64,000 bases of DNA from a virus: IMG/VR virus record IMGVR_UViG_3300025009_000052; one strand, written 5' to 3'. Positions 5,392 through 44,675 of this stretch are shown here, in pieces. The first letter of the stretch is position 1. The number at the start of each line of letters is the position of its first letter. A program made the translations under genes and the position numbers. The notes under the pieces are model-generated. The model was given only the letters and a program-made list of their open reading frames with translations. It was not told the DNA's origin and ran no database searches.

Positions 5392-5613
5392 TTATGGTCT
5401 CAAATTATTTTGTGTACTTTTAATTTTCATCCATAATTTTTTATACCAAGGCAGTTCGAGATATTCCACCCTAGCATGAATATCAACGTATTTTCTAGTG
5501 GTTTGGGCAAATACCTTATTCATTTCAACCACAGACTTAGCCAAGTCGGGGTCGTCGAGTACTTGGGACAATTTAATTTCTAAGTTTTTAAATATAATAT
5601 TACTTTTTTCCAT
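5392..5613 (-). CDS. Hypothetical protein
   Basis: 73 aa, start overlaps the chaperonin stop (TAATG). Confidence 0.6.
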   Translation of the reverse strand: MEKSNIIFKNLEIKLSQVLDDPDLAKSVVEMNKVFAQTTRKYVDIHARVEYLELPWYKKLWMKIKSTQNNLRP

Positions 5614-10472: not shown

Positions 10473-10586
10473 ATGAAAAAAGTTTCTTTAAACAATTGGC
10501 TACCAACAATACTAACTATATTACAAATAGTCCAAATAATATGGCAGTTGTGGATTGGCATATTACCACATTTTACAATAAAATAG
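10473..10586 (+). CDS. Putative 37-aa hydrophobic peptide
   Basis: Hand translation MKKVSLNNWLPTILTILQIVQIIWQLWIGILPHFTIK; fills an intergenic gap. Confidence 0.35.
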   Translation: MKKVSLNNWLPTILTILQIVQIIWQLWIGILPHFTIK

Positions 10587-12156
10587 ACCATCTTTTTTTA
10601 CCACAATCCCAAATTCTGTATAATTCTAAGGACATGGCTAATTCTTTTTCAGTATTAGCCATAGTTCCTACAGCGCCTTTCTTTAAAAGTAAATCTTTTT
10701 TATTGCTTTGTTTGCTTTGTCTAGTCATATCTGGAGCGACGTAACTGTAATCTGGAAGCAAGTGTTCAACAAGCTTAAAACCGCATTTTTCATAAACAGT
10801 CCCTTCTGAGTATCTATTATCTGACCAGGAGATCAATTCTTTATAGCCCATATCTTTAGCATATTCCGTTAGTTTTTTAACTAATCTAGAAGCCCCTCCT
10901 AATATTTGAACGCCGTCTTTAAAAACTAAACGATTTAAAACAAACGGAGTTCCTTCACCCTTCTGTCTATGGTGAATGTTTCCAGTAACTAATCCTAACA
11001 ATTCGTCTTCAAAATAAAGGCCAAAAGCAATTTTAAAAGTGGTTTTACCTTGTATATGATGGTCGTCTAGGAATTTAGCAGCAATTGATCTTTCAACTTC
11101 TTTTAATTCGCATTTTCTAGCGTAGATTTTTCTATCATAAATCCCTAAAACAGACTTGAGATAGTTTTTAACTTGGGAGTTTCTATCTAACCACTCGTCT
11201 TCAAATATAGTTATAAGGCGAATTCCTTGTTCGTTAGCTTGTTTCATTTTGTCGTAGTGATAGTTGTGGTTTTCAGCATGTTTGGGTATTCGTTCCGAAT
11301 GCCAGTGTAATCCATTATACTCAATGGCCAAATTTAAAGATGGGATGTAAATATCAAGTTCTTTACCTTTAGTTTTCCCCTTAAATCTTAATTTTTCAGC
11401 ATGGAACCCAAATGAAGTTATCCAATTGTGGACTATCCCTTCGGTTTTAGAGGTTCCGTTACAAGAACAATGACCACAATCTTGTGAGTAAAAATTAGTT
11501 AATCTATTTTCTCTTATAAAACCACATTTATCATGTATAGCTTTTAATGGAAACCTTTTTATAGAATAAGACTCTTCTATTAGCGTATATCCTAGGGCTT
11601 TTAACTGATCACGAACTTGATCGATAGTTAGGGTTTTTCCGCATTTGTTTCTAGGATCTCCTTGGAATATTTTAGCAAACGCTTTTTCGTAAATAAATCC
11701 GTCAGGTGCCAATATTGTGACGAATGTATTCTGGGAACTTATTATTTTATGAGATTGGTCTGGTAGTCTTTGTTGTAATATATCTATAGGAAGGGAACAA
11801 TCTTCCTTGTGGGCGTCAAACTTACCTCTTATAACCGCCCTATATTGTGGATGTTGATTTAATATCTTTTTAGCGGTTTCTGGGTGTATTTCTAATTGCC
11901 TAATGGTTTGATTTAATTTTATTTTTTGATTATCTTTTAGGGCTTGTTCTAACACTAATAGAAATTTATTTTGTTTGTCGTAATGCTTTTTGCCTAACCT
12001 ACTGACCATATTTATATTGTATTTTTTTATCCAATAGTTAATGTTTTGTCGGTCAATTTTTAACTCAGCCCCTATTTCATTTTGATTATAGCCCTCGGAT
12101 GCCATTTGTGTAATTTTTTCTAAAATTTCTGGTGTTAGTTGTGATTGATAAGACAT
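10573..12156 (-). CDS. Hef-like free-standing homing endonuclease (HTH + PD-(D/E)XK/Vsr-like + C-terminal domain)
   Basis: ELDIYIPSLNLAIEYNGLHWHSE, LITIFEDEW, IYARKC, SWSDNRYSEG, IWDCGK; start at MSYQ with RBS and own TGTGGTATAAT promoter. Confidence 0.8.
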   Translation of the reverse strand: MSYQSQLTPEILEKITQMASEGYNQNEIGAELKIDRQNINYWIKKYNINMVSRLGKKHYDKQNKFLLVLEQALKDNQKIKLNQTIRQLEIHPETAKKILNQHPQYRAVIRGKFDAHKEDCSLPIDILQQRLPDQSHKIISSQNTFVTILAPDGFIYEKAFAKIFQGDPRNKCGKTLTIDQVRDQLKALGYTLIEESYSIKRFPLKAIHDKCGFIRENRLTNFYSQDCGHCSCNGTSKTEGIVHNWITSFGFHAEKLRFKGKTKGKELDIYIPSLNLAIEYNGLHWHSERIPKHAENHNYHYDKMKQANEQGIRLITIFEDEWLDRNSQVKNYLKSVLGIYDRKIYARKCELKEVERSIAAKFLDDHHIQGKTTFKIAFGLYFEDELLGLVTGNIHHRQKGEGTPFVLNRLVFKDGVQILGGASRLVKKLTEYAKDMGYKELISWSDNRYSEGTVYEKCGFKLVEHLLPDYSYVAPDMTRQSKQSNKKDLLLKKGAVGTMANTEKELAMSLELYRIWDCGKKRWSILL

Positions 12157-12295
12157 AAAACCTCTTTTGTTATATAATCTATTATACCACAAACTAATAT
12201 AAAATGATCTATATTTTATAAAAATAATTTAAAATAAAAACGAACCTTCGCGTCTATTTGTTAATTTAAAGGTCGTAATTGGCTAATTGTTAGAA

Positions 12296-12346: not shown

Positions 12347-13735
12347 TTAACTTAATTGACCAGAAATGTTTTCAAAAAGGACGTTTTTCCTTGGCTGATA
12401 GCCCGCGAGGCATTTGAAAGAAAAGTGCGCCTCGGGCAAGCTTAAATCGTGGAGAGCAAGTTTTAATCGTGAATATGGAGCTAATTGGTGAAAACCAAAA
12501 GTATTGGTTTGGAGCAAGAAACCAGTTACAGAACCTGGCTCTTTAAAGCCCAAATCTACGAAACTAGTTGCGCCTGATCCACTAGCTTTTACTCTACCGA
12601 TAAATTTAGCAGCAGCGGCAGTTCCACCATCAGCAGATCGGTATACGTTAAAATATTTACAACCGGTTACGGCAGCGATAGCTAAAGTAACTTTTTGGCC
12701 AGCAGTAGGAGATACTTGAGCAGAAGATGTAGAAACACTCTCGCCTCTTTCGTTACAAGCGGTAGCTTTATAGTAATAATCTCCAGCAGCCAAAATAGAA
12801 GCTGCATCGTTAGCTGCGGTAGGAGTTACTGTAGCAGGGGCAGCAGGTGAGCCGGCTCTACTTCTAGCAGGAGCGGTTTTACCAGAAAGAAATCTTGAAG
12901 GTTCTAAACTAATTGTACCGTTGGATGTCCATTGGGTTCTTAGGTTAGCGCCCATAGCTTCCTGAGCAGAACCAGCAAGCATGATTCTTTCTTTTGCGTG
13001 AGCAATTTTATTATAAGCAGAAAGAGAAATCGGGTCTAGCATCAATTTATCAGCAGAACCATGATTCATAGCACTTTTAACAGCTCCGTCCTCGATAAAC
13101 GATTCGGTCAAAGTACCGTTAACTGCGATAACTACTGTTTGGTTTGATCCGTATTCTGCAAACATAAGGTCTTGAGTGTTAGAAAGAGAATCTGAAAGTC
13201 TAACTTGCATATCGACGCCTTGCATTCCAGGTACGTCAGCGATTACAGCAGGGTTTCCATCGAAAACACCTGAGTTAGAAAAATCAGCTTGTCCTCTAAA
13301 ACCGTCAAATTCGATATCAGCAGATAGTTTTATAGCAGCGTCGTTTCCGGCTCTGGTTTCAGCTTTTTGGCCATCAAATGCGGCAACTAAATTAGCAGCA
13401 ACACTTACTCTACGAACTGTAGAATAATAAGCCATAGGTATGGTGATTCTTGAATAATTAGAAGTATCCTCTTCGCCAATTCCACCCTCATACTGAGCAG
13501 ATCCGCCGAAAATTCCGTAATCTAATTGACGGTTAAATTGTACCAAAGTACCTTTTGCGTCTTTAACTGAGAACATTTTTTGCAATTTAATTTGTTTGTC
13601 GTCAAAACAAACATTTTCCATAACTGGGGATAGATCTTCAATCTGAAGAGCCGATCCTTGTTGTAAAGAACTTGGTGCTGCGTTGTAACTACCAGCTTCC
13701 AAGGCTTTCATAAGGTCATTCAATTGGTTTACCAT
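12347..13735 (-). CDS. Major capsid protein (SPO1/Twort-like)
   Basis: LMKALEAG...GSALQIEDLS N-terminus, 462 aa, C-terminal Ig-like insertion, follows the scaffold. Confidence 0.9.
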   Translation of the reverse strand: MVNQLNDLMKALEAGSYNAAPSSLQQGSALQIEDLSPVMENVCFDDKQIKLQKMFSVKDAKGTLVQFNRQLDYGIFGGSAQYEGGIGEEDTSNYSRITIPMAYYSTVRRVSVAANLVAAFDGQKAETRAGNDAAIKLSADIEFDGFRGQADFSNSGVFDGNPAVIADVPGMQGVDMQVRLSDSLSNTQDLMFAEYGSNQTVVIAVNGTLTESFIEDGAVKSAMNHGSADKLMLDPISLSAYNKIAHAKERIMLAGSAQEAMGANLRTQWTSNGTISLEPSRFLSGKTAPARSRAGSPAAPATVTPTAANDAASILAAGDYYYKATACNERGESVSTSSAQVSPTAGQKVTLAIAAVTGCKYFNVYRSADGGTAAAAKFIGRVKASGSGATSFVDLGFKEPGSVTGFLLQTNTFGFHQLAPYSRLKLALHDLSLPEAHFSFKCLAGYQPRKNVLFENISGQLS

Positions 13736-13744
13736 GTAATCCTC

Positions 13745-14407
13745 CTATAAAAGATGTTTTATTAATTCAATTGATTGAGTGTTATTATAATAAGTATCAA
13801 TAGCTTCTCTGTCTTTCTTCTCTAACTTTTCAGATCTGATTTTTTCACAAAGAATGTTTGAAATTTCTTTCTGACTTAATTGACTTGCATCTTTTTTAGT
13901 AGGAGCTACGGTAGCTTCAGCTTCGGTCTTTTTGATGTATTCAATTTTAGTAATTGCTTTTCTTTGTGGAGCTTCTTTCTTAATAAATTTTGTAAAAGCT
14001 TCGGTCAGTTTTTCCAAATTTTTCTTAAGCTCAGTGTTTTCTTCTTTAAGAGACTCTATCTCAGCTTTGGCTAATTTGTCTTCTTTCTTTTCAATTTTAA
14101 CTTCCTTTACTTCTTCAGTTTTATTGATAGTGTCAGATCCAAATATAGTCTTTTTAATAGCTTGATAGTGTGCGTCTTGCTCAGCTTTGCTCATTGATTG
14201 GTAGAGTTTGTCCATTTCGGCAAAATCCTCTTCGTCATAATCAAATTCACTTTCTTGTTTAGCTACTTCTTCTGTTTTTTGAACTTTAACTTCTTCAGTT
14301 TTAGGTTCTTCTATTTTAGCCTCTTGTTCGGCTTTAGCTAAAGATTCAGCAAATTGAGTTTCTACCTCACTAATGAGAGCTGCCATTTCTTGTTCTGAAT
14401 ATTTCAC
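13745..14407 (-). CDS. Probable head scaffolding protein
   Basis: E/K-rich coiled coil directly upstream of the capsid gene; many LxKA/xxKT motifs. Confidence 0.7.
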   Translation of the reverse strand: MKYSEQEMAALISEVETQFAESLAKAEQEAKIEEPKTEEVKVQKTEEVAKQESEFDYDEEDFAEMDKLYQSMSKAEQDAHYQAIKKTIFGSDTINKTEEVKEVKIEKKEDKLAKAEIESLKEENTELKKNLEKLTEAFTKFIKKEAPQRKAITKIEYIKKTEAEATVAPTKKDASQLSQKEISNILCEKIRSEKLEKKDREAIDTYYNNTQSIELIKHLL

Positions 14408-22620: not shown

Positions 22621-24489
22621 ATGGGTAGGGGAATCAAAATACTAATAGATAAAGACCGACTAATAGATTTATATCTAAACCAAAACAAGACTATACCCGA
22701 AACAGCTAAGGAATTGAATTGTGGCCACACTAGTATTATAAGATATCTCAAGAAATACAATATTACTAAACCCTTAGAGTTAAAACACCAAAATGTTTCG
22801 AGATCAAATCGAAGAATAGATCATCAAAAGTTAATTGACGACTATTTGGTTAATAAAATGCTTACTCCTGAAATAGCTAAAAAATATAACACCAATGTAT
22901 CGTCTGTTGCAAGGATATTGTCCGATCACAATGTTGATGTGGACGATCGATATAGGCAATACCGAAAAAAAGTAGCCGACGACAATATTCCCTATAAAGA
23001 TATTATTGAATTGTATATTAATCAAAATAAGACAGCTTTAGAGGTGGCAAATATTCTTAAAATAAGTGAATTTAAAATTAGAAAGTGTATGGATAAAATA
23101 GGCACAAAGAAAACGAAAGAAATGTGGACTAAGTTAAATACTAATAAAGACACGCAATGGGATTTACTAAAAAATCCAGAATGGTTTTACCAAAAATATA
23201 TTTCAGAAAACAAGACTATAATTGAGGTTGCTAAGGAGGCTGGGTCAACCATTAGAATGGCTAGGCTTTATCGGATTAAGTATGGTTTTAAAAAGAGTAC
23301 CGAGCAGAAGGGTAGTTTTTTACAAAAAAATAACAGTAATGTTAAAGATAAAGAATGGCTATATCAAAAGTATATTGTAGAGAATACTAGAATTATCGAA
23401 ATAGCCGAACAGGAAAATATTAGTATGTGGTTGGTTGAATATTATATTCATAAGTTTAACCTACACAAAAGCCATGCGCTCAAAAGAAAGCTTAGGATAG
23501 AAACTAATATAAGCAGGGGGAACCAGACTTGTATTTTTGGGCAAACGATCGATGAATTGGCGGAACAATACAAATTATCACATTCTTTTACTTGGTCTTT
23601 GTTTAAGAGGAATTCCTTCTCCACCTATGAAGAATTACACTCTTTTTTGGCTAAAATCAGTATAGATAGATTTACTAGTTTAGAACTGTATACCAATAAG
23701 CTTTTGGGGCTAGAGAATTATAATCAAAAAGCACACCTCACATTAAACTATAAGCCGGATTTCAAAATAAGTGACATTTTATATTTAAACGTTGATGGTT
23801 TGTATTGGCACTGTGAAAAAGAGGTGGACGATAGTTACTATCATTTTACCATGAGACAAAAATATGAGGAGTTAGGTCTGCAAATTCTCCAATTCCGTGA
23901 AAACGATATTTATAAAAATCCTGAAATAGTCAAGTCTATTGTGAATAATAAGACAAATACTAATATTGCAACTATCTACGGTCGTAAAACTGAAATTAAA
24001 GAAGTAAAAACTGAGGACGCTAAAGAATTCCTAACTAGGTGCCATTTAAAGGGCTATTTTTCGGGAAAACACATAGGTCTGTATTATAATGGCAATCTTA
24101 AGAGTGTGCTAAGTTATAAGATTTACGATAAAAACACCCTTAAAGTTGAAAGATTCTGTACAGATTTGAATACTAGAATTATTGGTGGGTTCTCTAAGTT
24201 ATTAAAATATTTAGAAAGAAATGAGAGTTTTAAAGAAGTTTATTATTGGGTTGATTTAAAGTATGGAACTGGTAAATTTTTAGAGCAATTGGGATTCCAA
24301 CACTCTCACGATACTTTAGGTTGGGAATGGACGGATAAGTTTGATACCTTTAATCGTAGAAGGTGTCGGGCTAATATGGATGAGAGGAAGCTTAAAGAAC
24401 GTGAATATGCCAATGAATTAAAATGGTATAAGATTTACGATGCTGGTCAGAGGTTATTTGTGAGGAAATATGTACAAACTACTACTTAA
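22621..24489 (+). CDS. Second Hef-like homing endonuclease with repeated HTH modules
   Basis: Repeated LYQKYI..NKT..EIA units; KPDF...NVDGLYWH, IYGRKT, YWVDLKYGTG, IYDAGQ. Confidence 0.78.
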   Translation: MGRGIKILIDKDRLIDLYLNQNKTIPETAKELNCGHTSIIRYLKKYNITKPLELKHQNVSRSNRRIDHQKLIDDYLVNKMLTPEIAKKYNTNVSSVARILSDHNVDVDDRYRQYRKKVADDNIPYKDIIELYINQNKTALEVANILKISEFKIRKCMDKIGTKKTKEMWTKLNTNKDTQWDLLKNPEWFYQKYISENKTIIEVAKEAGSTIRMARLYRIKYGFKKSTEQKGSFLQKNNSNVKDKEWLYQKYIVENTRIIEIAEQENISMWLVEYYIHKFNLHKSHALKRKLRIETNISRGNQTCIFGQTIDELAEQYKLSHSFTWSLFKRNSFSTYEELHSFLAKISIDRFTSLELYTNKLLGLENYNQKAHLTLNYKPDFKISDILYLNVDGLYWHCEKEVDDSYYHFTMRQKYEELGLQILQFRENDIYKNPEIVKSIVNNKTNTNIATIYGRKTEIKEVKTEDAKEFLTRCHLKGYFSGKHIGLYYNGNLKSVLSYKIYDKNTLKVERFCTDLNTRIIGGFSKLLKYLERNESFKEVYYWVDLKYGTGKFLEQLGFQHSHDTLGWEWTDKFDTFNRRRCRANMDERKLKEREYANELKWYKIYDAGQRLFVRKYVQTTT

Positions 24490-25681
24490 AACAATCGAAA
24501 AGCAAAAAGAAGATAAACTCAATTTTATCAACAATTTACATAAAAGTATTGGTGAAAAACCCAATGCTATTTTAAATCGACAACCTCACTTTATATTTTC
24601 CACTGAAAATCCCAGATACCCTACTAAAACCAAAATGACTCATGAGGATGTCTTAGATCTTTTGAGAGACAAGGGTTATGATGCTCACGAAATGTATGGG
24701 GTGGATGAGATTGAGGGAAAATATGGAGATAAAGAAAAAAGTATTTTAATTCACAATCCACATATTAGATCAATACCTCATTTACACCAATTAGTTCAAG
24801 CACTTGGACAAGAATCAAGCCTATATTCTTCAGGACTAAACAGCGAACTTCACTTCCATTCAGGCCCAAATGCCGGTCAACATATGAAAGGAACTGGAAC
24901 AGATATTCCTAAAGTTAAGCCAAATGATAATTATTCCGAAACAAAAGACGGTATGGTTTTCCAACACAACATGGATCACGAAAATCTATATCCGATGTCC
25001 GAATCTATGTTAAAAATGAAACCTACTAAGATTAACAAATCAGAGTTTTATGCTAAAAATGGATTTTATTTATGTAAAAATCAGGATAAGCATCCTTTAG
25101 AAGACCATAATCCAGATACTAAATTGATCCACTACTCCCCCCAACAAGGATTAACCGAATTGGATCCAGAACATCACGGGGTCAGGGGAATAGGTTCCGA
25201 AGCTAAACAAGGTAAACCGGAACATCCAATGTCTTTCTTTTATTTAGAAAATACTGAGCCAGAACATATTGTAACATCTGGATCTAAAAGTAAATACATT
25301 ACTTCTTTAGGTAGTAAAAAACTTTATGATATTGGCAAAGATAGTCATAATTTGTGGAGTCAAGCTGAAGAAATTGCTCAGAAAAGACAGACCAATCCTG
25401 GTGTAGTTAGAAAAGAAGATTTCCACAATGCTATTAGAAATGCTGGTTACCATGGAATCTATAATTCTAGCTTAGGCGATACCATGAAAAATGTGGTCGG
25501 GATGTTTGAAAAAATGCCAATTGAAAAAGAAGTTCCAATGCATCCGATGGATTTTAAAAGAACTACTAGTTTTGATCACAACAGTAATAAACAGATTCAC
25601 AGTAGTGCAGAACAATACGCTAATGAATTTGGACACCACGATCCTAAGTTTTTGGCAAAATTGAAAATGTCCTTGAGGTAG
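24470..25681 (+). CDS. Putative internal head protein: SAM-lyase-like + ART-PolyVal-like domains
   Basis: FIFSTEN..H..VL..LR..EGKYG..EKSIL..GQESSLY; then LIHYS...LDP...FFY...LYD...AGYHGI; LHKS/INKS junctions. Confidence 0.55.
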   Translation: MYKLLLKTIEKQKEDKLNFINNLHKSIGEKPNAILNRQPHFIFSTENPRYPTKTKMTHEDVLDLLRDKGYDAHEMYGVDEIEGKYGDKEKSILIHNPHIRSIPHLHQLVQALGQESSLYSSGLNSELHFHSGPNAGQHMKGTGTDIPKVKPNDNYSETKDGMVFQHNMDHENLYPMSESMLKMKPTKINKSEFYAKNGFYLCKNQDKHPLEDHNPDTKLIHYSPQQGLTELDPEHHGVRGIGSEAKQGKPEHPMSFFYLENTEPEHIVTSGSKSKYITSLGSKKLYDIGKDSHNLWSQAEEIAQKRQTNPGVVRKEDFHNAIRNAGYHGIYNSSLGDTMKNVVGMFEKMPIEKEVPMHPMDFKRTTSFDHNSNKQIHSSAEQYANEFGHHDPKFLAKLKMSLR

Positions 25682-28538: not shown

Positions 28539-31500
28539 ATGGATAAGTTACAGGATTTACTAGAAAAAATAGAAGAAGTAATAGAGCAAGATCTTCAGAA
28601 ACAACATATTTCCGATCTCTTCAAAGGTGGTAAAAAAGCTAATATCGGCGAAACCAGAACTTGGGATGGAAAAGACTATATCAAAACCCAAGATGGTTGG
28701 GACTATGTTGCTCAGGGGCATGAGCCAAAAACTAATGAGCAGCCTAAACAACCTCCAGAAGTTCAAAAACCAGTTTCAGATATTAAAACTCCTCATGAAG
28801 TAAAATCTCCAGAGCCTCAAGTATCAAAGCCCCAGGAAGAAACAGAACAAACGAAAGAAGTTGTTGAGTCACCAAGACAAGAAATTTCCGAAACCTCAGA
28901 AGAAAAACAAGAAGAATATGTAAACGCTCGTAAATCCAAGGTTTCTAACTTGGGTAAAGATATAAAAGGCTCAGCTAGACATAAAAGACAATATAGCTCT
29001 ATTAAAGATATGGGAACTGCCGAAATATCCGATATTACCGTTAAAAACCTATTGAAACAATTCCCTATCAATCTAATAGACGATGTAGCTAAGGACAATC
29101 CAATTATCCCCTATGTAGCCAACCAAATTTTAAATAGATTTCCTGCTAGTCCAAAACACGAAGTTCAAAAAGAAATGTATTTGGAAACTTTTGAATATGT
29201 TAGAAATAGAGTTCAAGAGCTGTCTAAACAAAAAGACTTATTATTTACCGACGTTATTTCAGCTATCCAAAAAGAAATTGTTGCTAAGATTAAAGAAAAC
29301 AGGGCTTCTGAAAACTATGTAAGAGGTTCCGACGACTTCTTAGTTCCCTATGTAAATAAAACCTTAAATTTTAGAAAAACAAAGGGCTCTGTTGGTCAAG
29401 ACGTTGAGGATTTAGTAAATGCTTTTGCTAGAACACTACCTGAATCCGATCAGGATGGGTTAAGTGTTGGTTATATGCTTAAGGAAACTAGACAAGCTGC
29501 TATGGCTGAATTTTATACCGAAGAGGGCGTAAGAAAAATAAAAGACTTGGTGGAAGGAAAGTCTTTAAGTAAAGTTTTTGAAATAGTCTCAGAAGGTAAA
29601 AAATCTAAAAAGTTTTCTGTAGCCGAGATCTATACTCAAGACGCTAAAAGAACTGGCCCAGATACTAAATTAACTACCGAAGAAGACCAAGCTAATTTTA
29701 TTATAAAATCCTGTGAAATGAAGGGTTTACAGTGGGGAAATAGTGTTACTGACGAAGAAAGAAAACACCATTTGAAAATGTCTTCCGAAGCCTTTAAGGA
29801 TTTGGCAGATATATTAGACTTACCCGAAAAAATGATTTCATTTAATGGTAGGTTAGGGTTAGCAATTGGAGCCAGAGGCCACGGAACTGCTTTAGCTCAT
29901 TATGAACCAAAAGAAATTGCTATTAATTTAACTAGGTCGAAAGGTGTCGGATCATTGGCTCATGAATGGGGCCATTTTTTAGACAATATTTTATCCAAAA
30001 CTCATGGTGTAAATGCTCACCCAGAAAATCAATTCTTATCCGAATCTGCTGTTTGGAATATGGGTGATAAATCTCCGGTTCAAGAATCTATGAAAGAATT
30101 GGTTAAATCAGATGCTTGGAAAAGCTTTAAAGACTCTACCCGTGATGCTCTTAATGATTTAGCTAAACACGGAATTAAGGAAAAGCCTAGCTATTGGATG
30201 TCACCTAAGGAATTATTCGCCAGAGCTTTTGAAGGATATATTAGTTATAAATTAAAATCCAAAGACAGAGAAAATACATATTTATCTGGTGGCAGCGAAG
30301 GTTTAATGTGGTGTACCAAGGAACAAAAAGAAAAATTGGCACCATATTTCGATAAATTTTTTGAAGAATTGAAAAAATCAGATCATATTAAGAAGGCTAT
30401 GGATTTAGAAAACGATTTGCAGAAAGGAAGTCTTCAAAGTAAAATGGGTAATCCCAAAAAACAATTAAGACCTCAAGAGACTAATACTATGATCAATTGG
30501 GTATCAGAGCAGCAACCTAGGGAAAATATCCCAGAAGCCACCAATAAAGCCAAACAGAGGTTTTTTCATAAGCTACATTCTCAAACAGAAGTAAAAAAAC
30601 ATCCTAAAACTGGGGAGAGAATGTTTTTAATGCATAGGGGTACTGAGACTGATTCGGACACACACAATACATCACTATCATCTTGGACGCCAAACTACAA
30701 TATAGCTAATGATTTTGCCGACAGTATTGACGACGATGGTACGAAAAGTACAGTTCATTCTGCTTGGATACCAGAAAGTGCTATTCATAATTACATACCG
30801 AATTCAATTGATAGAGATATTAAAGAATACGATGAGTTAATCCCGAGAGAGCAGGAGTACATCGTTAAGCCACATAATTTTTTACATGCTAATTGGCAAA
30901 AATTACCTAACAAAGAAGGACTTGATCGTAAGATAAACTGGAAACAGCGAATATATGGTAAAGGGGGTAGGCTGGCAGCCGGCGAAAATATAGAAAATGA
31001 TTTGACTAAATCTAAAATTAACGCAGATGAAGAAGGTGAAATAATTAAGAAAAATAAAGAAAAAGCTGAGGCCAAAAGAAAACACAAATTTAAAGCTGCT
31101 CAGTGGACGCACCCAAATGGACACCCAAGATGTATTATTTGTGGTGACGAAGAAAGGATTGATGGATATTGTAGTCCATCTTTAGATAAATCCCAAACTA
31201 AATGGCATAAAAGAAACGGTATTTTACAGAAAAGTTGGAGAAAAGCTATTGCAACAGGAGCCGCCCTATCAACAATGTTAGTGGGAGCCCACAATATGGG
31301 TCAAAACAAAGAACCTGGCAGGCAACCTTCTTCTGTTGATCAGTCTCAAATAAACCAAGTAAAAATTGCCCCAGACCATGGTTTAAAATCTGACATGTTA
31401 CATAATATTAAGAATAATCCTATTGTTGAAAACAATGTTTTACCTAAAGGTAGGTTTGGACAATATAGCCTGTCTCAAAACGCTATTAAAAGTGTTTTTA

Positions 31501-31781
31501 ATAAAAACCAAACATTAGGTGAAAGGTATGGCCATTTATTAAAACTTTCCCCCAATGAATTAGATCAACAACTAAAAAACGATCCTAATTTAGACCATCA
31601 ATTGGCAGATTCTCATTGGCATAATTTACAGAGTGAGTTTGGAAACAAACCTGACCATATAGCCCATGCTTGGTATCAAAATCCAGAGAATACCAGACAG
31701 GAAAGCCAACTTAAGGGAGGTGATTCTAATTTTAATAATCACTTCTATGTGTCCAAAATCATTAAGAATCTTAAAAAATAG
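28539..31781 (+). CDS. Large polyvalent protein: DdrB/LPD1 zincin + R-S-E ADP-ribosyltransferase + lysozyme-like domain
   Basis: LQWGN...LAIGARG...AHYEP...SLAHEWGHFLD...ELFARAFE; HRG...SSWT...EQEYIV; FGQYSL...AHAWYQ...YVSKI. Confidence 0.75.
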   Translation: MDKLQDLLEKIEEVIEQDLQKQHISDLFKGGKKANIGETRTWDGKDYIKTQDGWDYVAQGHEPKTNEQPKQPPEVQKPVSDIKTPHEVKSPEPQVSKPQEETEQTKEVVESPRQEISETSEEKQEEYVNARKSKVSNLGKDIKGSARHKRQYSSIKDMGTAEISDITVKNLLKQFPINLIDDVAKDNPIIPYVANQILNRFPASPKHEVQKEMYLETFEYVRNRVQELSKQKDLLFTDVISAIQKEIVAKIKENRASENYVRGSDDFLVPYVNKTLNFRKTKGSVGQDVEDLVNAFARTLPESDQDGLSVGYMLKETRQAAMAEFYTEEGVRKIKDLVEGKSLSKVFEIVSEGKKSKKFSVAEIYTQDAKRTGPDTKLTTEEDQANFIIKSCEMKGLQWGNSVTDEERKHHLKMSSEAFKDLADILDLPEKMISFNGRLGLAIGARGHGTALAHYEPKEIAINLTRSKGVGSLAHEWGHFLDNILSKTHGVNAHPENQFLSESAVWNMGDKSPVQESMKELVKSDAWKSFKDSTRDALNDLAKHGIKEKPSYWMSPKELFARAFEGYISYKLKSKDRENTYLSGGSEGLMWCTKEQKEKLAPYFDKFFEELKKSDHIKKAMDLENDLQKGSLQSKMGNPKKQLRPQETNTMINWVSEQQPRENIPEATNKAKQRFFHKLHSQTEVKKHPKTGERMFLMHRGTETDSDTHNTSLSSWTPNYNIANDFADSIDDDGTKSTVHSAWIPESAIHNYIPNSIDRDIKEYDELIPREQEYIVKPHNFLHANWQKLPNKEGLDRKINWKQRIYGKGGRLAAGENIENDLTKSKINADEEGEIIKKNKEKAEAKRKHKFKAAQWTHPNGHPRCIICGDEERIDGYCSPSLDKSQTKWHKRNGILQKSWRKAIATGAALSTMLVGAHNMGQNKEPGRQPSSVDQSQINQVKIAPDHGLKSDMLHNIKNNPIVENNVLPKGRFGQYSLSQNAIKSVFNKNQTLGERYGHLLKLSPNELDQQLKNDPNLDHQLADSHWHNLQSEFGNKPDHIAHAWYQNPENTRQESQLKGGDSNFNNHFYVSKIIKNLKK

Positions 31782-31816
31782 TTTGATTTGAATTAGCTTC
31801 TGTGGTAATATATAGT

Positions 31817-32299
31817 ATGGGATTTAAATATTTTTTAACCACCGCCTTATTATTAGTTACAATATGTACTTTTGGGGAAAACGATAACCCAAAACGAACC
31901 TACAGACAGATCTTAAAAAATAAGCCCAATATAGATAAGAAATATGCGACTAAATTAGCTAAACTTATTGATAGACATAGCATAAAACATAAGATACCAG
32001 CCCATATCTATACCGCCATATTAATGCAAGAAAGTGGGTATAAATTGGGCGCTAAAAGGTGTATTAAGAAGTGTACTGATTTTGGGATTAGCCAAATTAA
32101 CCATAGAACAGCGAAAAGCTACAACCTAGATAGGTCTAAATTACTGAAAGACTTAGACTATTCGATTTGGGCCGGTGCTATGGTGTTGGCAGATTTTAAA
32201 AGATACAAAAAAACTGAAAAGCGTTGGTGGTCAAGATATAATGCGTCAAGTAAACATAAAAGACTGGAGTATGAAAAACTAGTTAAAAGGTATTTTTAA
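31817..32299 (+). CDS. Lytic transglycosylase (SLT) with N-terminal signal peptide
   Basis: AILMQESGY (catalytic Glu), DFGISQIN, RYN; MGFKYFLTTALLLVTICTFG leader; own leaderless promoter. Confidence 0.88.
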   Translation: MGFKYFLTTALLLVTICTFGENDNPKRTYRQILKNKPNIDKKYATKLAKLIDRHSIKHKIPAHIYTAILMQESGYKLGAKRCIKKCTDFGISQINHRTAKSYNLDRSKLLKDLDYSIWAGAMVLADFKRYKKTEKRWWSRYNASSKHKRLEYEKLVKRYF

Positions 32300-34726: not shown

Positions 34727-35619
34727 TGAAAGAAAAAGAAAGAAATCTAATTAAAAGACTCTTAGGAGAGGATATCCTAGACAAATTGGAGAAATCTGAA
34801 ATTTCTGGTGGTATTCTTAAGCTTAATACAAATACAGTTACCGACCCTAACGATATTAAAATAGCCTTACAAATCGTACCTAGATCTGTTTTAAGCTATC
34901 TGTTTATGAACTTAAAAGATAAACAAATAGGCGATATTATTGATTTGGACTTGCCATTTGCTGAAGCTAAGCTACATATTAATAAACTATCTCCTGATAA
35001 TTATAGTGGCGATTTAGTTAAAGAGGGTAAGAAAATAGCAGAATTTAAATATAGATCATTGCCATCTATTGGTTTGATCTTAATGTCCAGTTTGGAACTA
35101 TATGATACTGATCAGCTTAACAGATTGGGACCTGCCGACTATCAATCCGATAAGGCTGAAAGTTTACAAAATCTAATAGATGAAAGACTTAAGCTATACG
35201 ATTTGGTTCATAGTGTTGTTGATAAGAAGATTTCAGAAAGAGAAGCTATAAAAGATTTAATTCATCAAAGGATTACTTCTGAGTTATTTAGACCTCAAAT
35301 AACAATTGCTCCACAACCTGAAGAGCCAGAGCCTGATAAGAAAAGTAAGTTAAAACAATTCTTAGAAGATAGAGTAAATAGGGCTCCAGTAAAAGAAGAA
35401 TCTATTGAAATGGACAAGAAAGAAATTAAATGTCCTGATTGTGGTGGGATTTTATGTAAGGGCGATGATAAGATAAGTCCCTGTATTTGCTTTGGTGAAA
35501 ATATGGGTAAAGAGATAAAGGTAAAAAAAATAGAAAACGGTAGGGTAAAAATAAAATTCCCCAAAGATTTTGGTGCTGAAAATATTGAGATGTTACTTGA
35601 AGCTTTAAAAAATAAATAA
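34726..35619 (+). CDS. Hypothetical protein with C-terminal Zn ribbon
   Basis: CPDCGG...CIC; N-terminal LEKS. Confidence 0.6.
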   Translation: MKEKERNLIKRLLGEDILDKLEKSEISGGILKLNTNTVTDPNDIKIALQIVPRSVLSYLFMNLKDKQIGDIIDLDLPFAEAKLHINKLSPDNYSGDLVKEGKKIAEFKYRSLPSIGLILMSSLELYDTDQLNRLGPADYQSDKAESLQNLIDERLKLYDLVHSVVDKKISEREAIKDLIHQRITSELFRPQITIAPQPEEPEPDKKSKLKQFLEDRVNRAPVKEESIEMDKKEIKCPDCGGILCKGDDKISPCICFGENMGKEIKVKKIENGRVKIKFPKDFGAENIEMLLEALKNK

Positions 35620-35629
35620 GGATCGATAT

Positions 35630-37042
35630 ATGGATAAAATTTATGTTAGTATTAATGGTGATAATATCGGTTCTGAACTTGGCCAAGCTATTGCTTCTGA
35701 CGATCACGAAGGTCTGGGCAAATTATCCCAATCAATTAAAGATAACCATTCTGAAATAGACCAATGGGTTGAATCTAAACAAGGTCGAGTGATAGTGTCG
35801 TCTGGGGACGAATCAATATTTGAGATTCCAATTGAAGCTGCTCAAGAATTAGAAGGAATTCGTGATAGATATAAAGAGATGTCTGGCCATAGTTTAACTA
35901 TTGGCGTTGGTTCAACAATGAGCGAGTCTTCCAAGGCTTTAATCTACGGTAAGATGAATGGAAAGAACCAAATTGTTGAGTATTCACCAGAAGTAGATAA
36001 ATTTTTAGCAGAAAACAATGTAGATGAAGATTCTGAAATTCCAGAAGATGAAAATATTCAGGAAAATGCAGATTCCTCAATTGAGGACGACTCCGATGTT
36101 CCAGAAGAGTCAGAAGATAGTGATTTAGAAGGTATACCTGAGGAAGATAATATTCCAGCAAGCGAAGAAGTCTCTGAAGAAGTCTCTGAAGAAGATATGT
36201 CCGAAGGTGATACTGTTCCAGAAGATGAAGTTAAGGAAACTGGTTTTGACGAGGAATCTACGGAACCAGAAATTGACAATATTGATGAGTCCACAGAAGG
36301 CGAAGAAATGCCTGAAGAGGATGTGTCCGAGGAAGGTGAAGAAAATTCAGAGGAAAATTTAGAAGATATATCTGAAGAAGCTCCAGAATTATCCGAAGAT
36401 GACGAGAATTATTTCGATATAAATCCAGACGAAATAGAAGAATTAAAACCCGAACACGTTGCTAATGGTGACTTAACATATCAAGGCGATCAACAAGAAA
36501 ATTCAAAAGACGAAGAGGACTATGTTGGCCCACAAGATGAGGATGGTTTAGAGGGAGACTCTGAGGGTGAAGAGATGCCTGAAGAAAATTCAGAAGAAGG
36601 TGGCGATAGATATGATATGTTATCTAATATGATACATGGCCATTTATCTGACCAACAAGACCCTAATGAATCCGAAGAAATGTCAGAAGGCGAAGAAATA
36701 CCTGAAGATATGCAAGACGGTCAAGAAGATAATAGTTCTGAATTAAAACAAGATATTTTCAATGCATTGCAGGGTTTTAAGCAAAATAAGGCTATGTTAG
36801 AAGACGCTAAAGAAAATAATCCAGAATTATATCAATCTCTCATTACTATGCTTAGGTCTATGATTCAAATGGCCAAACAACTAAATGGTTATGATCCAGA
36901 AGAAGATATGCAAGATGCCGATGGTCGTAGTGAGATTGAAGAAAGTTTACCTCATGCTGGGGAGTTTCAAGATGATTCTGAAATGCCAGAAGATGCTTTA
37001 CAAAACCCAGATGACGTAAAAAAAAACCCCTTAAATCAATAA
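35630..37042 (+). CDS. mCpol-like palm domain + acidic disordered linker + helical C-terminal domain
   Basis: YVSINGDNIG...GRVIVSSGDE...LTIGVG.TMSES.KALIYGK.NGKNQI. Confidence 0.7.
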   Translation: MDKIYVSINGDNIGSELGQAIASDDHEGLGKLSQSIKDNHSEIDQWVESKQGRVIVSSGDESIFEIPIEAAQELEGIRDRYKEMSGHSLTIGVGSTMSESSKALIYGKMNGKNQIVEYSPEVDKFLAENNVDEDSEIPEDENIQENADSSIEDDSDVPEESEDSDLEGIPEEDNIPASEEVSEEVSEEDMSEGDTVPEDEVKETGFDEESTEPEIDNIDESTEGEEMPEEDVSEEGEENSEENLEDISEEAPELSEDDENYFDINPDEIEELKPEHVANGDLTYQGDQQENSKDEEDYVGPQDEDGLEGDSEGEEMPEENSEEGGDRYDMLSNMIHGHLSDQQDPNESEEMSEGEEIPEDMQDGQEDNSSELKQDIFNALQGFKQNKAMLEDAKENNPELYQSLITMLRSMIQMAKQLNGYDPEEDMQDADGRSEIEESLPHAGEFQDDSEMPEDALQNPDDVKKNPLNQ

Positions 37043-37332
37043 GTTCACTTCCAGACAATCCAACTAAACACATTCCTATACCACAATCTCCAGTAGGTGC
37101 TGAAAAAGACGGTAAAATGAAAGTGGTTGATGGTACAACGGGGCGTGAATCCTGGAGAGGCGTGAGGCGTGGAATTCTGCGTGATTTTGATTCTGATCCT
37201 ACCTCTAAAAACTACAATAAATCCCAAATGAAAAAAGCTCCTCACCATTCTGCCCACGAAGGTGGGAAGCGTAGAGGGTCGGTTCCTCATATGGGATATA
37301 GGGATACTAAAGAAGGGCCAGAGGAACAATAG
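37021..37332 (+). CDS. -1 frame extension of 35630..37042 (probable frameshift product)
   Basis: The -1 frame opens just after TGA 37012 at the A9 run and reads KKPLKSISSLPDNPTKHIP...GPEEQ; weak RBS for the internal ATG 37117. Confidence 0.6.
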   Translation, partial: KKPLKSISSLPDNPTKHIPIPQSPVGAEKDGKMKVVDGTTGRESWRGVRRGILRDFDSDPTSKNYNKSQMKKAPHHSAHEGGKRRGSVPHMGYRDTKEGPEEQ

Positions 37333-37335
37333 AAG

Positions 37336-38091
37336 ATGTCTAATTTAAAACTTGATATTGATATTGAATCTATTGTAAAAGACTTCAAAGAAGTTAAGAA
37401 ACAGGTTGAAGCTGAGTTGGTGCAGGGGGTACAAGCGTTGGCTTCGATGACAAACGCACGACTTTATGAGGTGTCAAGAGACGGTTTAAAATCCCTTAGA
37501 AAAAAATACCAAGATGCTATAGAATTTACCAACCCTGAGGCTAATCTATGGATAGTTTCACTAAAAGAAGAAGCTATGTTTATTGAGTCGGGGAGGAAAA
37601 GTGGATGGATGTCTGAATTACTTAATGGTAAATCTGCTAAAACAAGTAAAGATGGAAAAAAATATGCTATTATCCCATTCGAGATGTCTAAAAATCCATC
37701 GGAACAAACACCAAAAGCCCAGGACTTAACCAATCAAATCAAAGCTTTTTTAAAGCAGCAAGGTGTTAGTTATAAGAAAATAGAACATAATCAAGATGGT
37801 AGTCCTAGACTTGGATTACTCCATAAATTTGATATAGACTCTGCTAGGCCTAGTCCGATGGCTAAAGATCCGGCATTGAAGGGACTTTCTATTTATCAAC
37901 ATAAAATGAGTGATGGAAGTATTAAAAGACAACATATGGTTTTTAGAATTATACACGAATCTCACCAATCTCAGGGGAAATGGGTCCATCCTGGTCTAGA
38001 GGCGAAGAATTTTATGGATTCGGTGTTTTCATGGGCGTGTGAGCAGTGGGAACAAACCATCCTACCGTCTATCTTAAAAGACTACAAATAG
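37336..38091 (+). CDS. Virion morphogenesis/neck protein
   Basis: A.FIE.G...GKKYAIIPF...FR.......W.HPG...NFMD pattern of SPO1/Twort-like structural proteins. Confidence 0.6.
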   Translation: MSNLKLDIDIESIVKDFKEVKKQVEAELVQGVQALASMTNARLYEVSRDGLKSLRKKYQDAIEFTNPEANLWIVSLKEEAMFIESGRKSGWMSELLNGKSAKTSKDGKKYAIIPFEMSKNPSEQTPKAQDLTNQIKAFLKQQGVSYKKIEHNQDGSPRLGLLHKFDIDSARPSPMAKDPALKGLSIYQHKMSDGSIKRQHMVFRIIHESHQSQGKWVHPGLEAKNFMDSVFSWACEQWEQTILPSILKDYK

Positions 38092-39479: not shown

Positions 39480-40781
39480 ATGGAAAATATTAACAAAAAG
39501 TATACAGCAGCAGAAGCGGCTATTAAGATTTTAGACCATGTTAAAAAAATGTATCAAAATAGTAACTTAAAAAAATCAAATACTGCTCATGAAATTGAAG
39601 CTGGATCGGAGCCCGTTACTCAAAATACTGAATGTCCCGAGCAATTAGCTGCTAGTAAATCACTTAAATCTGCTAAGAAAAAACATAATGATAGTGGAAA
39701 TACTGAATTAGATGGTGAGTCAGAAGACATTGATAATGAAGATGTTGAGTCAGAAGATGGTGAAGAGATTCCAGATCATGAGCAAGGCTTATCTCCTGAG
39801 GAAAAAGAAATTCATGACTCTACCGAGTCCGAAAGTGACGAAGAAGAATTAGAACAGCAAGCAGATGCGGAAGCTCACGAAAGAGACGAATATGACGACG
39901 ACGATATTGAAGAGGAAAGTGAGTCTCCAGAACAACAAGAGGGTGACGAGAACGTAGAAGAACATGAAAAATTAGAATCCGAAGTGGAAGACAATGAAAA
40001 AGATGAAAAAAAAGACGGCGAAAAAATAATTGATAAAGTAACTAAGGACAAAAAACCAGCTTTTATGAAAGCCGAAGTAGATAAAGCTTGTGGATTAAAG
40101 TCCCCTAAATTAGGTTCTTTTTTAAAAAAGAGGGAATTAAAGAAAGCTATAGTTGACGAGGGCAAGTCCGATGATAAAAAAAGAGAAGATAGAATAAAAA
40201 GAGGAAACGATAGAATAGTTGTTGGTTCTCAGAAAGTTTTTGGTAGAGATAAAGGTGTTCATAAGCCGTACCATGGAGAAGGATCTTCAAACGTAGGTGA
40301 AAAAACCAGATTTTCTAGGAAATATAAAGAAGTTCCTGCGATTAGACGTGCAACACAAGAATCTGCCAAGGATGAGGTTAAATTAAAAATAAATGAACAA
40401 AAACAAATGAAAAAACCCAACCTTCCTAAGTCAGAAGAGGCTAGTTTAGAAAAAGCTAAGCCAGCTAATAAGCCAAGTAAGGATATTAAACATATTTCTG
40501 AAAAAAGATTACAAGATAGGGATAAATTTAAAGAACAAAGAGAAGCTGGCAAAGACCCTATCCAACAAATGAGAATTGCCAATAATAAAAAGAAAGCTGC
40601 TAAAAAAGTAGTTATTGTAGATAAAGAAAGGGGTAATAAACAATCAAGAAAAGTGGTAGCCACTAAGAAAGTGGAAAAAATGTTAGGGATGAGTAATTTA
40701 CCTAGCAATTCTGGTAACCCCAAAGATGCTTATAAGAAACCAGAAACCCCAAAACCACCTAAAGTAAACGAAGGGTATTAA
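39480..40781 (+). CDS. Disordered acidic/basic putative internal head protein
   Basis: LKKS, FMKA, VDKA, LKKA, LPKS, LEKA punctuate low-complexity segments. Confidence 0.6.
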   Translation: MENINKKYTAAEAAIKILDHVKKMYQNSNLKKSNTAHEIEAGSEPVTQNTECPEQLAASKSLKSAKKKHNDSGNTELDGESEDIDNEDVESEDGEEIPDHEQGLSPEEKEIHDSTESESDEEELEQQADAEAHERDEYDDDDIEEESESPEQQEGDENVEEHEKLESEVEDNEKDEKKDGEKIIDKVTKDKKPAFMKAEVDKACGLKSPKLGSFLKKRELKKAIVDEGKSDDKKREDRIKRGNDRIVVGSQKVFGRDKGVHKPYHGEGSSNVGEKTRFSRKYKEVPAIRRATQESAKDEVKLKINEQKQMKKPNLPKSEEASLEKAKPANKPSKDIKHISEKRLQDRDKFKEQREAGKDPIQQMRIANNKKKAAKKVVIVDKERGNKQSRKVVATKKVEKMLGMSNLPSNSGNPKDAYKKPETPKPPKVNEGY

Positions 40782-43706: not shown

Positions 43707-44675
43707 ATGGTAATATATAAAATTACAAACACTATCAATGGTAAGATCTATATTGGTCAAACCGTCAACTTAAAGATGAGGTGGAAAGCTCACTTGAAAT
43801 GTGCATTAAAATCTAAATACCCCCTCTATCGGGCTATGAGAAGATATGGAACCCATGTTTTTAAAATAAGCCAAATATCAAAATGCGACAGTAAAGAAAT
43901 GATGAACCATCGTGAAATATATTATACTAATTTATTTAATAGTACTATTCCTAATGGATATAATATATCTATCGGGCCCAACGATCGTTCATCTGATATT
44001 GCTTTAAAATGGAGGAAGTGTAGGTGGTTTAACATATGGTCTTTAGAAACGGGACATATTATAAATATGATGAGAAATCAGTCAGAAGCTGCTAGAAAAT
44101 ATAATGTCCAACAAAATGGGATTTACTTAAATCTAAATAAAAAACAGCCTTATTGTGGTAGGTATATTTTTTCATATATAGAAGATAAGGAAAAAATAGA
44201 ACATAGTATTAAAAGTACGATGTTAAAAGCTAGGCACAGAAAATTCAAAGTGTTTGATTCTAATAAGAATTTTATCGGAGAGTGGTCTAATATTAGTAGA
44301 TGTGCCAATTATTTAAAAATTTGCTTATCTGAATTATCCGAGGTAATGACCAATAATATTGGTTTTTACCATAATTACATATTTATATACTCCAACACGC
44401 CTAATTTCGAGCAAGTTTTGGTAGAAAAATTAGAACAGTCTAAAAAATATGTAAACAAACACTCAGATAAAAAAGTTAGGGTGTTTAAATCGTTATTACT
44501 AGTTAAACCAACTGTTAAAAATAAAGCAGTATACTCCAAAGGACAATTTGTTGGCGAATGGCTAAGTGTAGATGAGTGTTCCAAATCAATCAATATTAAT
44601 AAGGGATATGTGAAAGATTGTTTGTCTGGTCGAAGAATACATCGCAAGGGCTATATGTTTGAATATATTGATTAA
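43707..44675 (+). CDS. GIY-YIG homing endonuclease with NUMOD1-like repeats
   Basis: VIYKITNTINGKIYIGQT...RWKAH...GYN; three GEW/HTH modules. Confidence 0.9.
   Translation: MVIYKITNTINGKIYIGQTVNLKMRWKAHLKCALKSKYPLYRAMRRYGTHVFKISQISKCDSKEMMNHREIYYTNLFNSTIPNGYNISIGPNDRSSDIALKWRKCRWFNIWSLETGHIINMMRNQSEAARKYNVQQNGIYLNLNKKQPYCGRYIFSYIEDKEKIEHSIKSTMLKARHRKFKVFDSNKNFIGEWSNISRCANYLKICLSELSEVMTNNIGFYHNYIFIYSNTPNFEQVLVEKLEQSKKYVNKHSDKKVRVFKSLLLVKPTVKNKAVYSKGQFVGEWLSVDECSKSININKGYVKDCLSGRRIHRKGYMFEYID

Follow-up and report, generated by a model that had tools for sequence, protein, structure and literature searches.

The gene described here is located on the plus strand at 35630..37042 of a 64,000-nt stretch of viral DNA from IMG/VR virus record IMGVR_UViG_3300025009_000052 (the whole stretch is hereafter called the window), and its open reading frame (ORF) encodes a protein of 470 amino acid residues (aa). 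The window represents bases 74727-138726 (minus strand) of a complete virus record of 155,481 bp with direct terminal repeats, in agreement with a first-pass annotation, made from the letters alone, that had called the gene phage-encoded. The first 125 residues were confirmed to be a genuine Cas10-like palm domain of the mCpol ('minimal CRISPR polymerase') family, because sequence, fold and predicted dimer agreed. The features of the gene are listed below; scans for promoters and terminators gave results at chance level only.

35618..35622 (+): Shine-Dalgarno-like AAGGA, 7 nt 5' of the ATG, overlapping the stop of the upstream 297-aa gene (read from the sequence).
35630..36004 (+): mCpol-type palm domain, aa 1-125 (Pfam, PDB phmmer, AlphaFold2, Foldseek, VIA, column counts).
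35654-35656 (+): Asn9, in the mCpol domain.
35660-35662 (+): Asp11, in the mCpol domain.
35726-35728 (+): Ser33, at the adenine-selector position of the mCpol domain.
35801-35812 (+): Ser58-Gly-Asp60-Glu61, in the mCpol domain.
35951-35953 (+): Lys108, in the mCpol domain.
35963-35965 (+): Lys112, in the mCpol domain.
36005..36718 (+): acidic disordered linker, aa 126-363 (composition, predicted local distance difference test [pLDDT], ortholog length variation).
36719..36943 (+): conserved C-terminal helical module (pLDDT 84-93; conservation).
36944..37042 (+): acidic C-terminus (aa 439-470) on which the short form ends; its 0-frame stop codon, TAA, occupies 37040-37042 (sequence).
37018..37026 (+): run of nine A (A9; 0-frame GTA AAA AAA AAC), a putative slippery site for a -1 shift (A AAA AAG in orthologs).
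37015..37332 (+): -1 frame extension, a basic tail (open -1 frame, conserved peptide), ending 4 nt before the next gene (37336).

The first-pass annotation had placed an mCpol-like domain at 35630-35995 on the strength of several short motifs. These were all found within residues 1-122, namely INGDNIG (residues 8-14), SSGDE (57-61), IGVG (91-94) and SKALIYGKMNGKN (101-113), and the likeness was far beyond chance: the Pfam mCpol model PF18182 scored 62.5 bits (cut-off 26.4; E 5.9e-17), with model positions 1-114 of 114 aligned to aa 5-118. The PADLOC model CARF_HEPN_mCpol was matched on its mCpol part (33 bits). The Pfam model of Cas10 palm2 gave 24.3 bits, under the cut-off of 27, no Pfam match to the GGDEF model (PF00990) was obtained at E up to 1, and no family for the protein was found in PHROGs.

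When the PDB sequences were searched with phmmer, the two solved mCpols were the only matches (E 1.3e-7). The alignment with the Panoptes enzyme KpOptS showed 25% identity over 116 residues and was gap-free up to the hairpin, pairing Asp6 of KpOptS with Asn9 of the phage protein, Asp8 with Asp11, Ser30 with Ser33, Asn34 with Lys37, and Asp57 with Asp60. The metals of KpOptS are held by Asp6 and Asp57, both of which full activity requires (PMC12657218), and the adenine is recognized by Ser30 and Asn34 of the adjacent protomer (PMC12657218; PMC12657230). The first metal-binding Asp of strand 1 (KpOptS Asp6) was found to be replaced by Asn9 in this phage, as had been read from the letters at the outset, and the acidic residue on the beta2-beta3 hairpin (KpOptS Asp57; the GGDEF equivalent) was present as Asp60-Glu61 within SSGDE.

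The AlphaFold2 model, based on 112 full-length relatives, reached a pLDDT of 96-98 over residues 1-130, with the order beta-alpha-alpha-beta-beta-alpha-beta-alpha-beta. The Foldseek comparison that the first-pass annotation had proposed returned a palm-fold match to mCpol: ranks 1-6 were all KpOptS or mCpol chains, with template-modelling (TM) scores by target of 0.83-0.89 and root-mean-square deviations (rmsd) of 1.5-2.7 A, the match to OptS 9mnr_A having a TM of 0.89 and an rmsd of 1.5 A over 116 residues. Below the mCpols stood GGDEF domains (TM by target 0.48-0.56, these 160-170-aa targets being partly covered), followed by Cas10. An independent all-against-representatives search, VIA, gave a Z of 17.6 for 9mnr_A, and the next structure was a GGDEF domain with 13.7.

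An exhaustive phmmer search with aa 1-127 as query yielded 834 clusters (50% identity) at E <= 1e-3, of which 559 remained at E <= 1e-10. Each of the 150 best family clusters scored at least 87 bits, KpOptS scored 35 bits only against the same query, and the listed hits therefore make up a phage-type clade distinct from the Panoptes enzymes. A typical member has 350-800 aa with the mCpol domain at the N-terminus. One protein was added to the family by a word-based search with the C-terminal region, and one further relative, of 890 aa, by a search for longer proteins.

Decay of the catalytic residues in all homologs, which the first-pass annotation had raised, was not what the columns showed; the active-site residues proved to be the most conserved positions of the family. 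In 157 aligned rows of mCpol relatives, the best-kept columns were Asp11 (154 of 154), Gly59 (152), Asp60 (153) and Glu61 (140), together with Lys102 (141), Lys108 (154) and Lys112 (142), and Gly92 and Gly94 were kept in almost all rows. The Ser33 column held Ser in 122 of the 157 rows and Thr in 21 more. Among the 112 full-length relatives (24-48% identity), Asp11, Asp60, Gly92 and Lys108 were invariant, and no other columns were.

Of the 157 rows, 79 had Asp and 74 had Asn at position 9, a distribution that takes about three changes on the tree. Asn9 was found to travel with Ser58 (Gly58 in the Asp type), His26, His87, Ala22 and Ser101, and on this co-occurrence, judged from sequence, two orthologous clades are recognized, DGD...GGDE and NGD...SGDE, the phage of the window belonging to the latter. 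An Asp-type ortholog (locus L023) fills the same gene slot. Because of the nearly even split, the few changes on the tree and the coupled residues, Asn9 is best read from these alignments as a fixed, co-adapted clade state and as no private lesion. The first-pass annotation had suggested that catalysis might be altered or lost through this Asn; the substitution is real, but it belongs to one of two clades as a whole and does not mark decay in this phage.

Modelled as a pair in the presence of ATP and Mg, aa 1-127 scored 0.82, and the best of three controls scored 0.00; among proteins of known structure, 20 of 30 that had been solved as pairs attained the mark used, as did 1 of 23 that had been solved as single chains. 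Agreement between runs was 100% of contacts, and the partner pLDDT was at least 93. The model supports dimer binding without showing it, and since solved mCpol dimers exist, the pass may reflect memory. The predicted interface is symmetric and comprises residues 17-18, 21-24, 26, 29-30, 33, 37, 55-56, 58-59, 63, 96-98 and 101, and the base-selector residue 33 would lie opposite residue 58 of the partner copy, which is the KpOptS geometry. Eight of the top 13 clade-separating positions fell inside this 20-residue interface (hypergeometric P 7.5e-5). Given this concentration, the Asp/Asn switch seems, in the model, to have reshaped the shared cleft.

The fusion to a long acidic linker, described in the first-pass annotation, was borne out by composition: aa 126-365 contain 103 Asp/Glu and 4 Lys/Arg (43% and 2%). 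The linker was disordered in the AlphaFold2 model (pLDDT ∼42) and hypervariable in length among orthologs, the differences amounting to roughly 100-450 aa in two alignments. It is followed by a module of four predicted helices (364-385, 387-396, 398-419 and 423-438) with the motif L..FK.NK..LE..K..NP.LY....ML..MI.MAK, in which the NP lies in a turn. The module was present in 131 of 154 relatives, including that of Myxococcus phage Mx1 (see below). No Pfam family was found for the helical module or the tail, and a search of the ESM Atlas with aa 360-470 gave matches at noise level only (0.81).

At the 3' end of the gene, the A9 run precedes the 0-frame stop, and the -1 frame stays open beyond it for an extension of ∼102 codons after the slip, so that a long form would have ∼567 aa and the short form 470 aa. 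The 0-frame stop was likewise found 1-5 codons past a stretch of A (A AAA AAG, or a run longer than this) in 13 of 15 IMG/VR loci other than Mx1 and in L023, which is of the Asp type. A basic peptide, SLPDK.TKHIP..PVGA.K.GK.KV.DG.TGK.SWR..DGD..NY..H.VH.G, is encoded in the -1 frame of those loci, with a mean column identity of 47%, and in L020, Mx1, P0012, P0014 and others the tail is fused in frame. Two isoforms are therefore very probably made, judging from the slippery run, the conserved -1 peptide and the natural in-frame fusions. In the AlphaFold2 model of the tail, a beta-hairpin was formed by tail residues 34-49 (pLDDT ∼83), and the remainder was extended and mostly of low confidence.

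Fixed-ratio frameshifts mark phage structural and assembly genes, as in lambda G/GT and T7 10A/10B. No downstream stimulatory RNA structure was detected, the segment 37027-37110 of this window folding no better than shuffles (z +1.0), and since no hairpin follows the A9 run, slippage may alternatively occur during transcription here. The identity of a tail chaperone of the G/GT kind was considered and rejected, since the gene lies upstream of the sheath gene and not between the tube and tape-measure genes.

The mCpol gene is contained in a plus-strand block of particle genes at 21333-51304. The order of the 5' part is a 403-aa protein, a 935-aa protein, a 1080-aa LPD1 protein, an SLT transglycosylase, a 291-aa phrog_1004 protein (listed as 'virion structural protein'), a 138-aa protein and a 297-aa zinc-ribbon protein; the mCpol protein follows, and then proteins of 251, 332, 93, 433, 94 and 861 aa. 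The 332-aa protein shows a weak likeness to PF23932 (Pfam description: phage termination protein). The 861-aa protein is probably the sheath, on the evidence of its Mx1 blastp homolog, which is annotated 'tail sheath protein'; no family was found for it in PHROGs or Pfam. Profiles of four flanking proteins found no match among PDB sequences. Mx1, L023 and 20 IMG/VR loci, on contigs of as much as 167 kb, all showed this gene order, and by this comparison the mCpol gene belongs to the core of the Mx1-like large myoviruses and is strictly syntenic among them. The first-pass annotation had placed it among head genes; it does lie in a particle block, by neck, terminator and sheath genes, but the capsid gene (12347-13735, minus strand, phrog_752) is 22 kb away. 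The capsid gene, the large terminase gene with an inserted LAGLIDADG region and a GroEL-like gene all lie on the minus strand, 22-34 kb off.

Several neighbours were characterized further. For the 251-aa protein (37336-38091) there is no more than a lead, its resemblance to neck or tail-completion proteins of the HK97 gp10-like and Phage_tail_S kinds: the ESM Atlas match had features of 0.91 and a TM of 0.70 by row (the smaller partner), and no Pfam or PDB sequence match was obtained. The 1080-aa protein (28539-31781) carries LPD1 (PF18796, 52 bits), which is typical of polyvalent proteins of phages and conjugative elements, and the SLT transglycosylase (165 aa, 31802-32299) comes after it; together they seem to form a block of virion proteins that are internal or are injected. 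The 403-aa protein (24470-25681) had no Pfam hit at E <= 0.01.

On the minus strand, an ORF of 1158 aa (1632-5108) matched large terminases over aa 930-1098 and a LAGLIDADG homing endonuclease over aa 445-628, and it is probably, from these matches, an intein-bearing or endonuclease-invaded terminase. A GroEL-like chaperonin (5613-7376, minus strand; phrog_5725, E 4e-93) lies between the terminase and capsid genes. Free-standing homing endonucleases were found at 10573-12192 (minus), 22621-24489 (plus) and 43707-44675 (plus), two of them of the HNH type and one of the GIY-YIG type; the last of the three lies between the sheath and probable tube genes and is missing from most related loci. Directly upstream of the capsid gene lies an acidic, Lys/Glu-rich protein of 220 aa (13745-14407, minus) containing LAKAE, MSKAE and LAKAE, which is likely a scaffold with repeated protease-type sites as judged from its composition and place. 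A scaffold identity for the mCpol protein was rejected, since this 220-aa protein fits better. The pattern [LIMV]xK[SAG]E occurred 7 times in 15 particle proteins, compared with 2.1 times in shuffles, a modest enrichment.

In a tblastn search of 50,697 cultured phage genomes, Mx1 was the only genome found, whether the mCpol protein, the 332-aa neighbour or an Asp-type ortholog was the query. A scan of 185,579 prokaryote species-representative genomes with two narrow peptide patterns of the family found no relative. The Mx1 ortholog (WNM70340.1; L002:7995-9401), annotated as a hypothetical protein, retains the fold-defining glycines, Asp11, the gene position, the helical module and an in-frame tail. 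The GDE motif (Asp60-Glu61) and all three conserved Lys are missing from it, and by its sequence it is a naturally inactivated copy; retention of the gene is therefore not always dependent on catalysis.

Some relatives embed the mCpol domain in giant proteins of polyvalent type, and this links the domain to cargo proteins. P0139 (1716 aa) combines mCpol with DUF5661, NUDIX and segments of the 935-aa and 1080-aa proteins of the window; in P0104 (1165 aa) mCpol lies inside a homolog of the 403-aa protein, with a weak S-adenosylmethionine lyase match (PF23780, 23.6 bits); and P0118 joins mCpol to DUF5661. Several unrelated enzymatic domains, by which polyvalent proteins are recognized, occur in these three proteins and in the neighbouring 1080-aa LPD1 protein, and not in the mCpol protein itself. 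Polyvalent phage proteins are predicted to be packaged and injected, and GGDEF and RelA/SpoT domains among them were suggested to interfere with host nucleotide signalling; mCpol is not mentioned there (Iyer et al. 2017, PMC5512222).

In some orthologs, a basic N-terminal extension ending in KP(N/S)LPK(S/A)E precedes an acidic spacer and then the mCpol domain. This basic module of ∼60 aa was also found in the 433-aa protein of the window (39480-40781; aa 258-319) and in N- or C-terminal extensions at L019:8828-9400 and in P0006, P0008, P0046, P0097, P0120 and P0143. It may be a targeting or cleavage module.

Taken together, the reading that we tentatively favour is that the protein binds nucleoside triphosphates (NTPs) or is an active enzyme, is associated with the particle and is probably delivered. 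Selection on the metal, triphosphate and adenine-selector residues, as judged from the alignments, argues for NTP binding and probably for catalysis, and the fixed place in the particle module together with the frameshift argues for a particle- or assembly-linked role, one that the first-pass annotation had not considered. In this reading, the N-terminal domains would form a head-to-head pair like that of Panoptes OptS, in which one copy's site for metal and triphosphate (Asn9, Asp11, Asp60-Glu61, Lys108 and Lys112) would face the base-selecting helix of its partner (Ser33 and Lys37). The dimer would use ATP, as suggested by the Ser at the adenine-selector position, and would make a cyclic di- or oligonucleotide. 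The acidic linker would serve as a flexible tether, and the C-terminal helices, with the basic tail in a minority of molecules, would anchor the enzyme to the particle or to an assembly partner. If it is so anchored, copies would probably be carried in the virion and released with the DNA into the next host, beside the neighbouring cargo enzymes of polyvalent type, where the product may interfere with host cyclic-nucleotide signalling.

Several observations weigh against this reading. Asn takes the place of the first metal-binding Asp, without which KpOptS is not fully active, and the Mx1 ortholog is without the GDE motif and all three conserved Lys. Counter-defence genes are usually patchy accessory genes, and the mCpol gene is core and fixed in place. 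No cyclic-nucleotide receptor, sponge or phosphodiesterase was found in the phage genome with four Pfam models (Tad2-like, 2H phosphoesterase, SAVED and AcrIII-1/DUF1874), the SAVED control itself giving no signal. The head-protease-type site [LIMV]-x-K-[SAG], like its longer form [LIMV]-x-K-[SAG]-E, is absent from the mCpol protein. Moreover, the core status, the frameshift and the decayed Mx1 ortholog point to an additional role that would not need catalysis.

A purely structural or assembly role, in which the palm has been exapted as a dimerising, perhaps nucleotide-stabilised, neck block or assembly chaperone with no signalling product, was judged doubtful, though a serious contender. It would account for a core gene with an invariant place next to the neck, terminator and sheath genes, for a conserved -1 frameshift typical of structural and assembly genes, for the Asn at the first metal site, and for an Mx1 ortholog that loses the catalytic residues and keeps the rest; the tail, extended with one hairpin, is also like arms that fold on a partner. 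However, a building block alone would not be expected to have the metal, triphosphate and base-selector residues as its best-kept positions across at least 150 clusters at 25-60% identity, and mCpol is also used as a module in multi-enzyme proteins of polyvalent type.

The conserved active site would serve equally well in a late cytoplasmic cyclase that is active and not packaged, which might hold off an effector of depletion-sensing abortive infection or time lysis, its C-terminal parts serving localisation or regulation. The gene is indeed co-oriented and tightly packed with late genes, and no cleavage or targeting motif was found in the mCpol protein; but the frameshift tail, the fixed neighbourhood and the cargo-protein fusions are left unexplained, and this explanation is considered improbable.

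A bolder form of the favoured reading is that the phage lineage packages and injects a constitutively active mCpol cyclase, whose product silences depletion-sensing guards such as Panoptes or else jams or hijacks CBASS, type III or cyclic di-AMP signalling, the two clades making different products. We regard it as a long shot. The first-pass annotation had suggested that a phage copy could resupply or spoof the Panoptes signal or act as a decoy; none of these has support from context, no Panoptes-type effector, sponge or 2H phosphodiesterase having been found in the genome. A catalytically dead decoy or sponge, with an Asn-type domain that would bind NTPs or cyclic nucleotides but not turn them over, would fit Asn9 in place of the catalytic Asp in an otherwise intact pocket, but it is very unlikely, as the Asp-type orthologs in the same gene slot are canonical (DGD...GGDE), the conserved residues hold the substrate metal and triphosphate and not a cyclic product, and one cleft per dimer of a 470-aa protein would make a poor sponge compared with the Acb2/Tad type.

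In the literature searched, the mCpols studied experimentally are bacterial defence enzymes, whose constitutive cyclic nucleotide restrains a toxin. Here, the mCpol fold, its active site under strong selection, was found to be encoded by the core genome of a phage lineage that is large (at least 559 clusters at 50% identity) and almost entirely uncultured, Mx1 being the sole cultured relative. What is new is a known enzyme family as a core particle gene of phages, in a new architecture and with a clade-wide active-site variant. If the protein is active, phages themselves would make nucleotide signals of the Cas10 family, and if it is an injected cyclase, it would be the first phage-encoded signal synthase of that family and would counter inhibitory immune signalling. 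An inactive protein would clearly exemplify how phage morphogenesis can recruit the fold of an immune-signalling enzyme. The natural Asp/Asn split, with its coupled interface changes, also amounts to an experiment, already set up by nature, on what mCpols require for catalysis.

The mCpol family was reportedly defined by Burroughs et al. in 2015. Phage-encoded mCpol was not described in the literature searched on mCpol and Panoptes, a search that did not take in that founding paper; the literature covered bacterial and archaeal systems only (including PMC12657218 and PMC12657230). Automatic annotation already labels proteins of the family as PF18182.

Compared with Panoptes OptS and mCpol (KpOptS 9MNR and 9PD0; mCpol 9NWN), the phage protein has the same single minimal palm domain of ∼120 aa, and it shares with KpOptS the second catalytic Asp, the adenine-selector Ser and the K..GK motif; a symmetric dimer with a composite site is predicted for it. 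It differs in lying in a lytic-type phage genome, whereas OptS lies in a bacterial defence island; Panoptes systems are encoded by bacterial or archaeal genomes, typically next to CBASS. No Pfam or PHROG match to an S-2TM-beta, CARF-TM or SAVED-TM effector was found in the genes flanking the mCpol gene; the flanking 297-aa zinc-ribbon and 251-aa HK97-gp10-like genes recur in 22 loci. Unlike KpOptS, it also carries the acidic linker, the helical module and the frameshift tail, and its first catalytic Asp is Asn; the phage (S/G)GDE hairpin is closer to GGDEF than is the degenerate motif of KpOptS.

Cas10 is a protein of ∼600-800 aa that combines two palm domains with an HD, a D2 and a D4 domain. 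The Cas10 palm (Csm1/Cmr2) is homologous in fold to the phage domain (Foldseek E 2e-4 to 1e-3; VIA Z ∼12) and has an ATP-type Ser selector, but the phage protein has one palm of 125 aa and not two, and is without the HD, D2 and D4 domains and the RNA-guided complex. As in the -1 frameshifts of lambda G/GT, T7 10A/10B and dnaX (A AAA AAG), a slippery run is found just before the 0-frame stop; in contrast to those genes, the mCpol gene encodes neither a tail chaperone nor a capsid protein, and its A9 run is without a downstream hairpin. With the GGDEF and RelA/SpoT polyvalent proteins (PMC5512222), it has in common a nucleotide-signal synthase domain among phage particle genes, whereas its usual form is a stand-alone protein of 350-800 aa with anchor modules of its own, encoded by a gene that is core and not sporadic.

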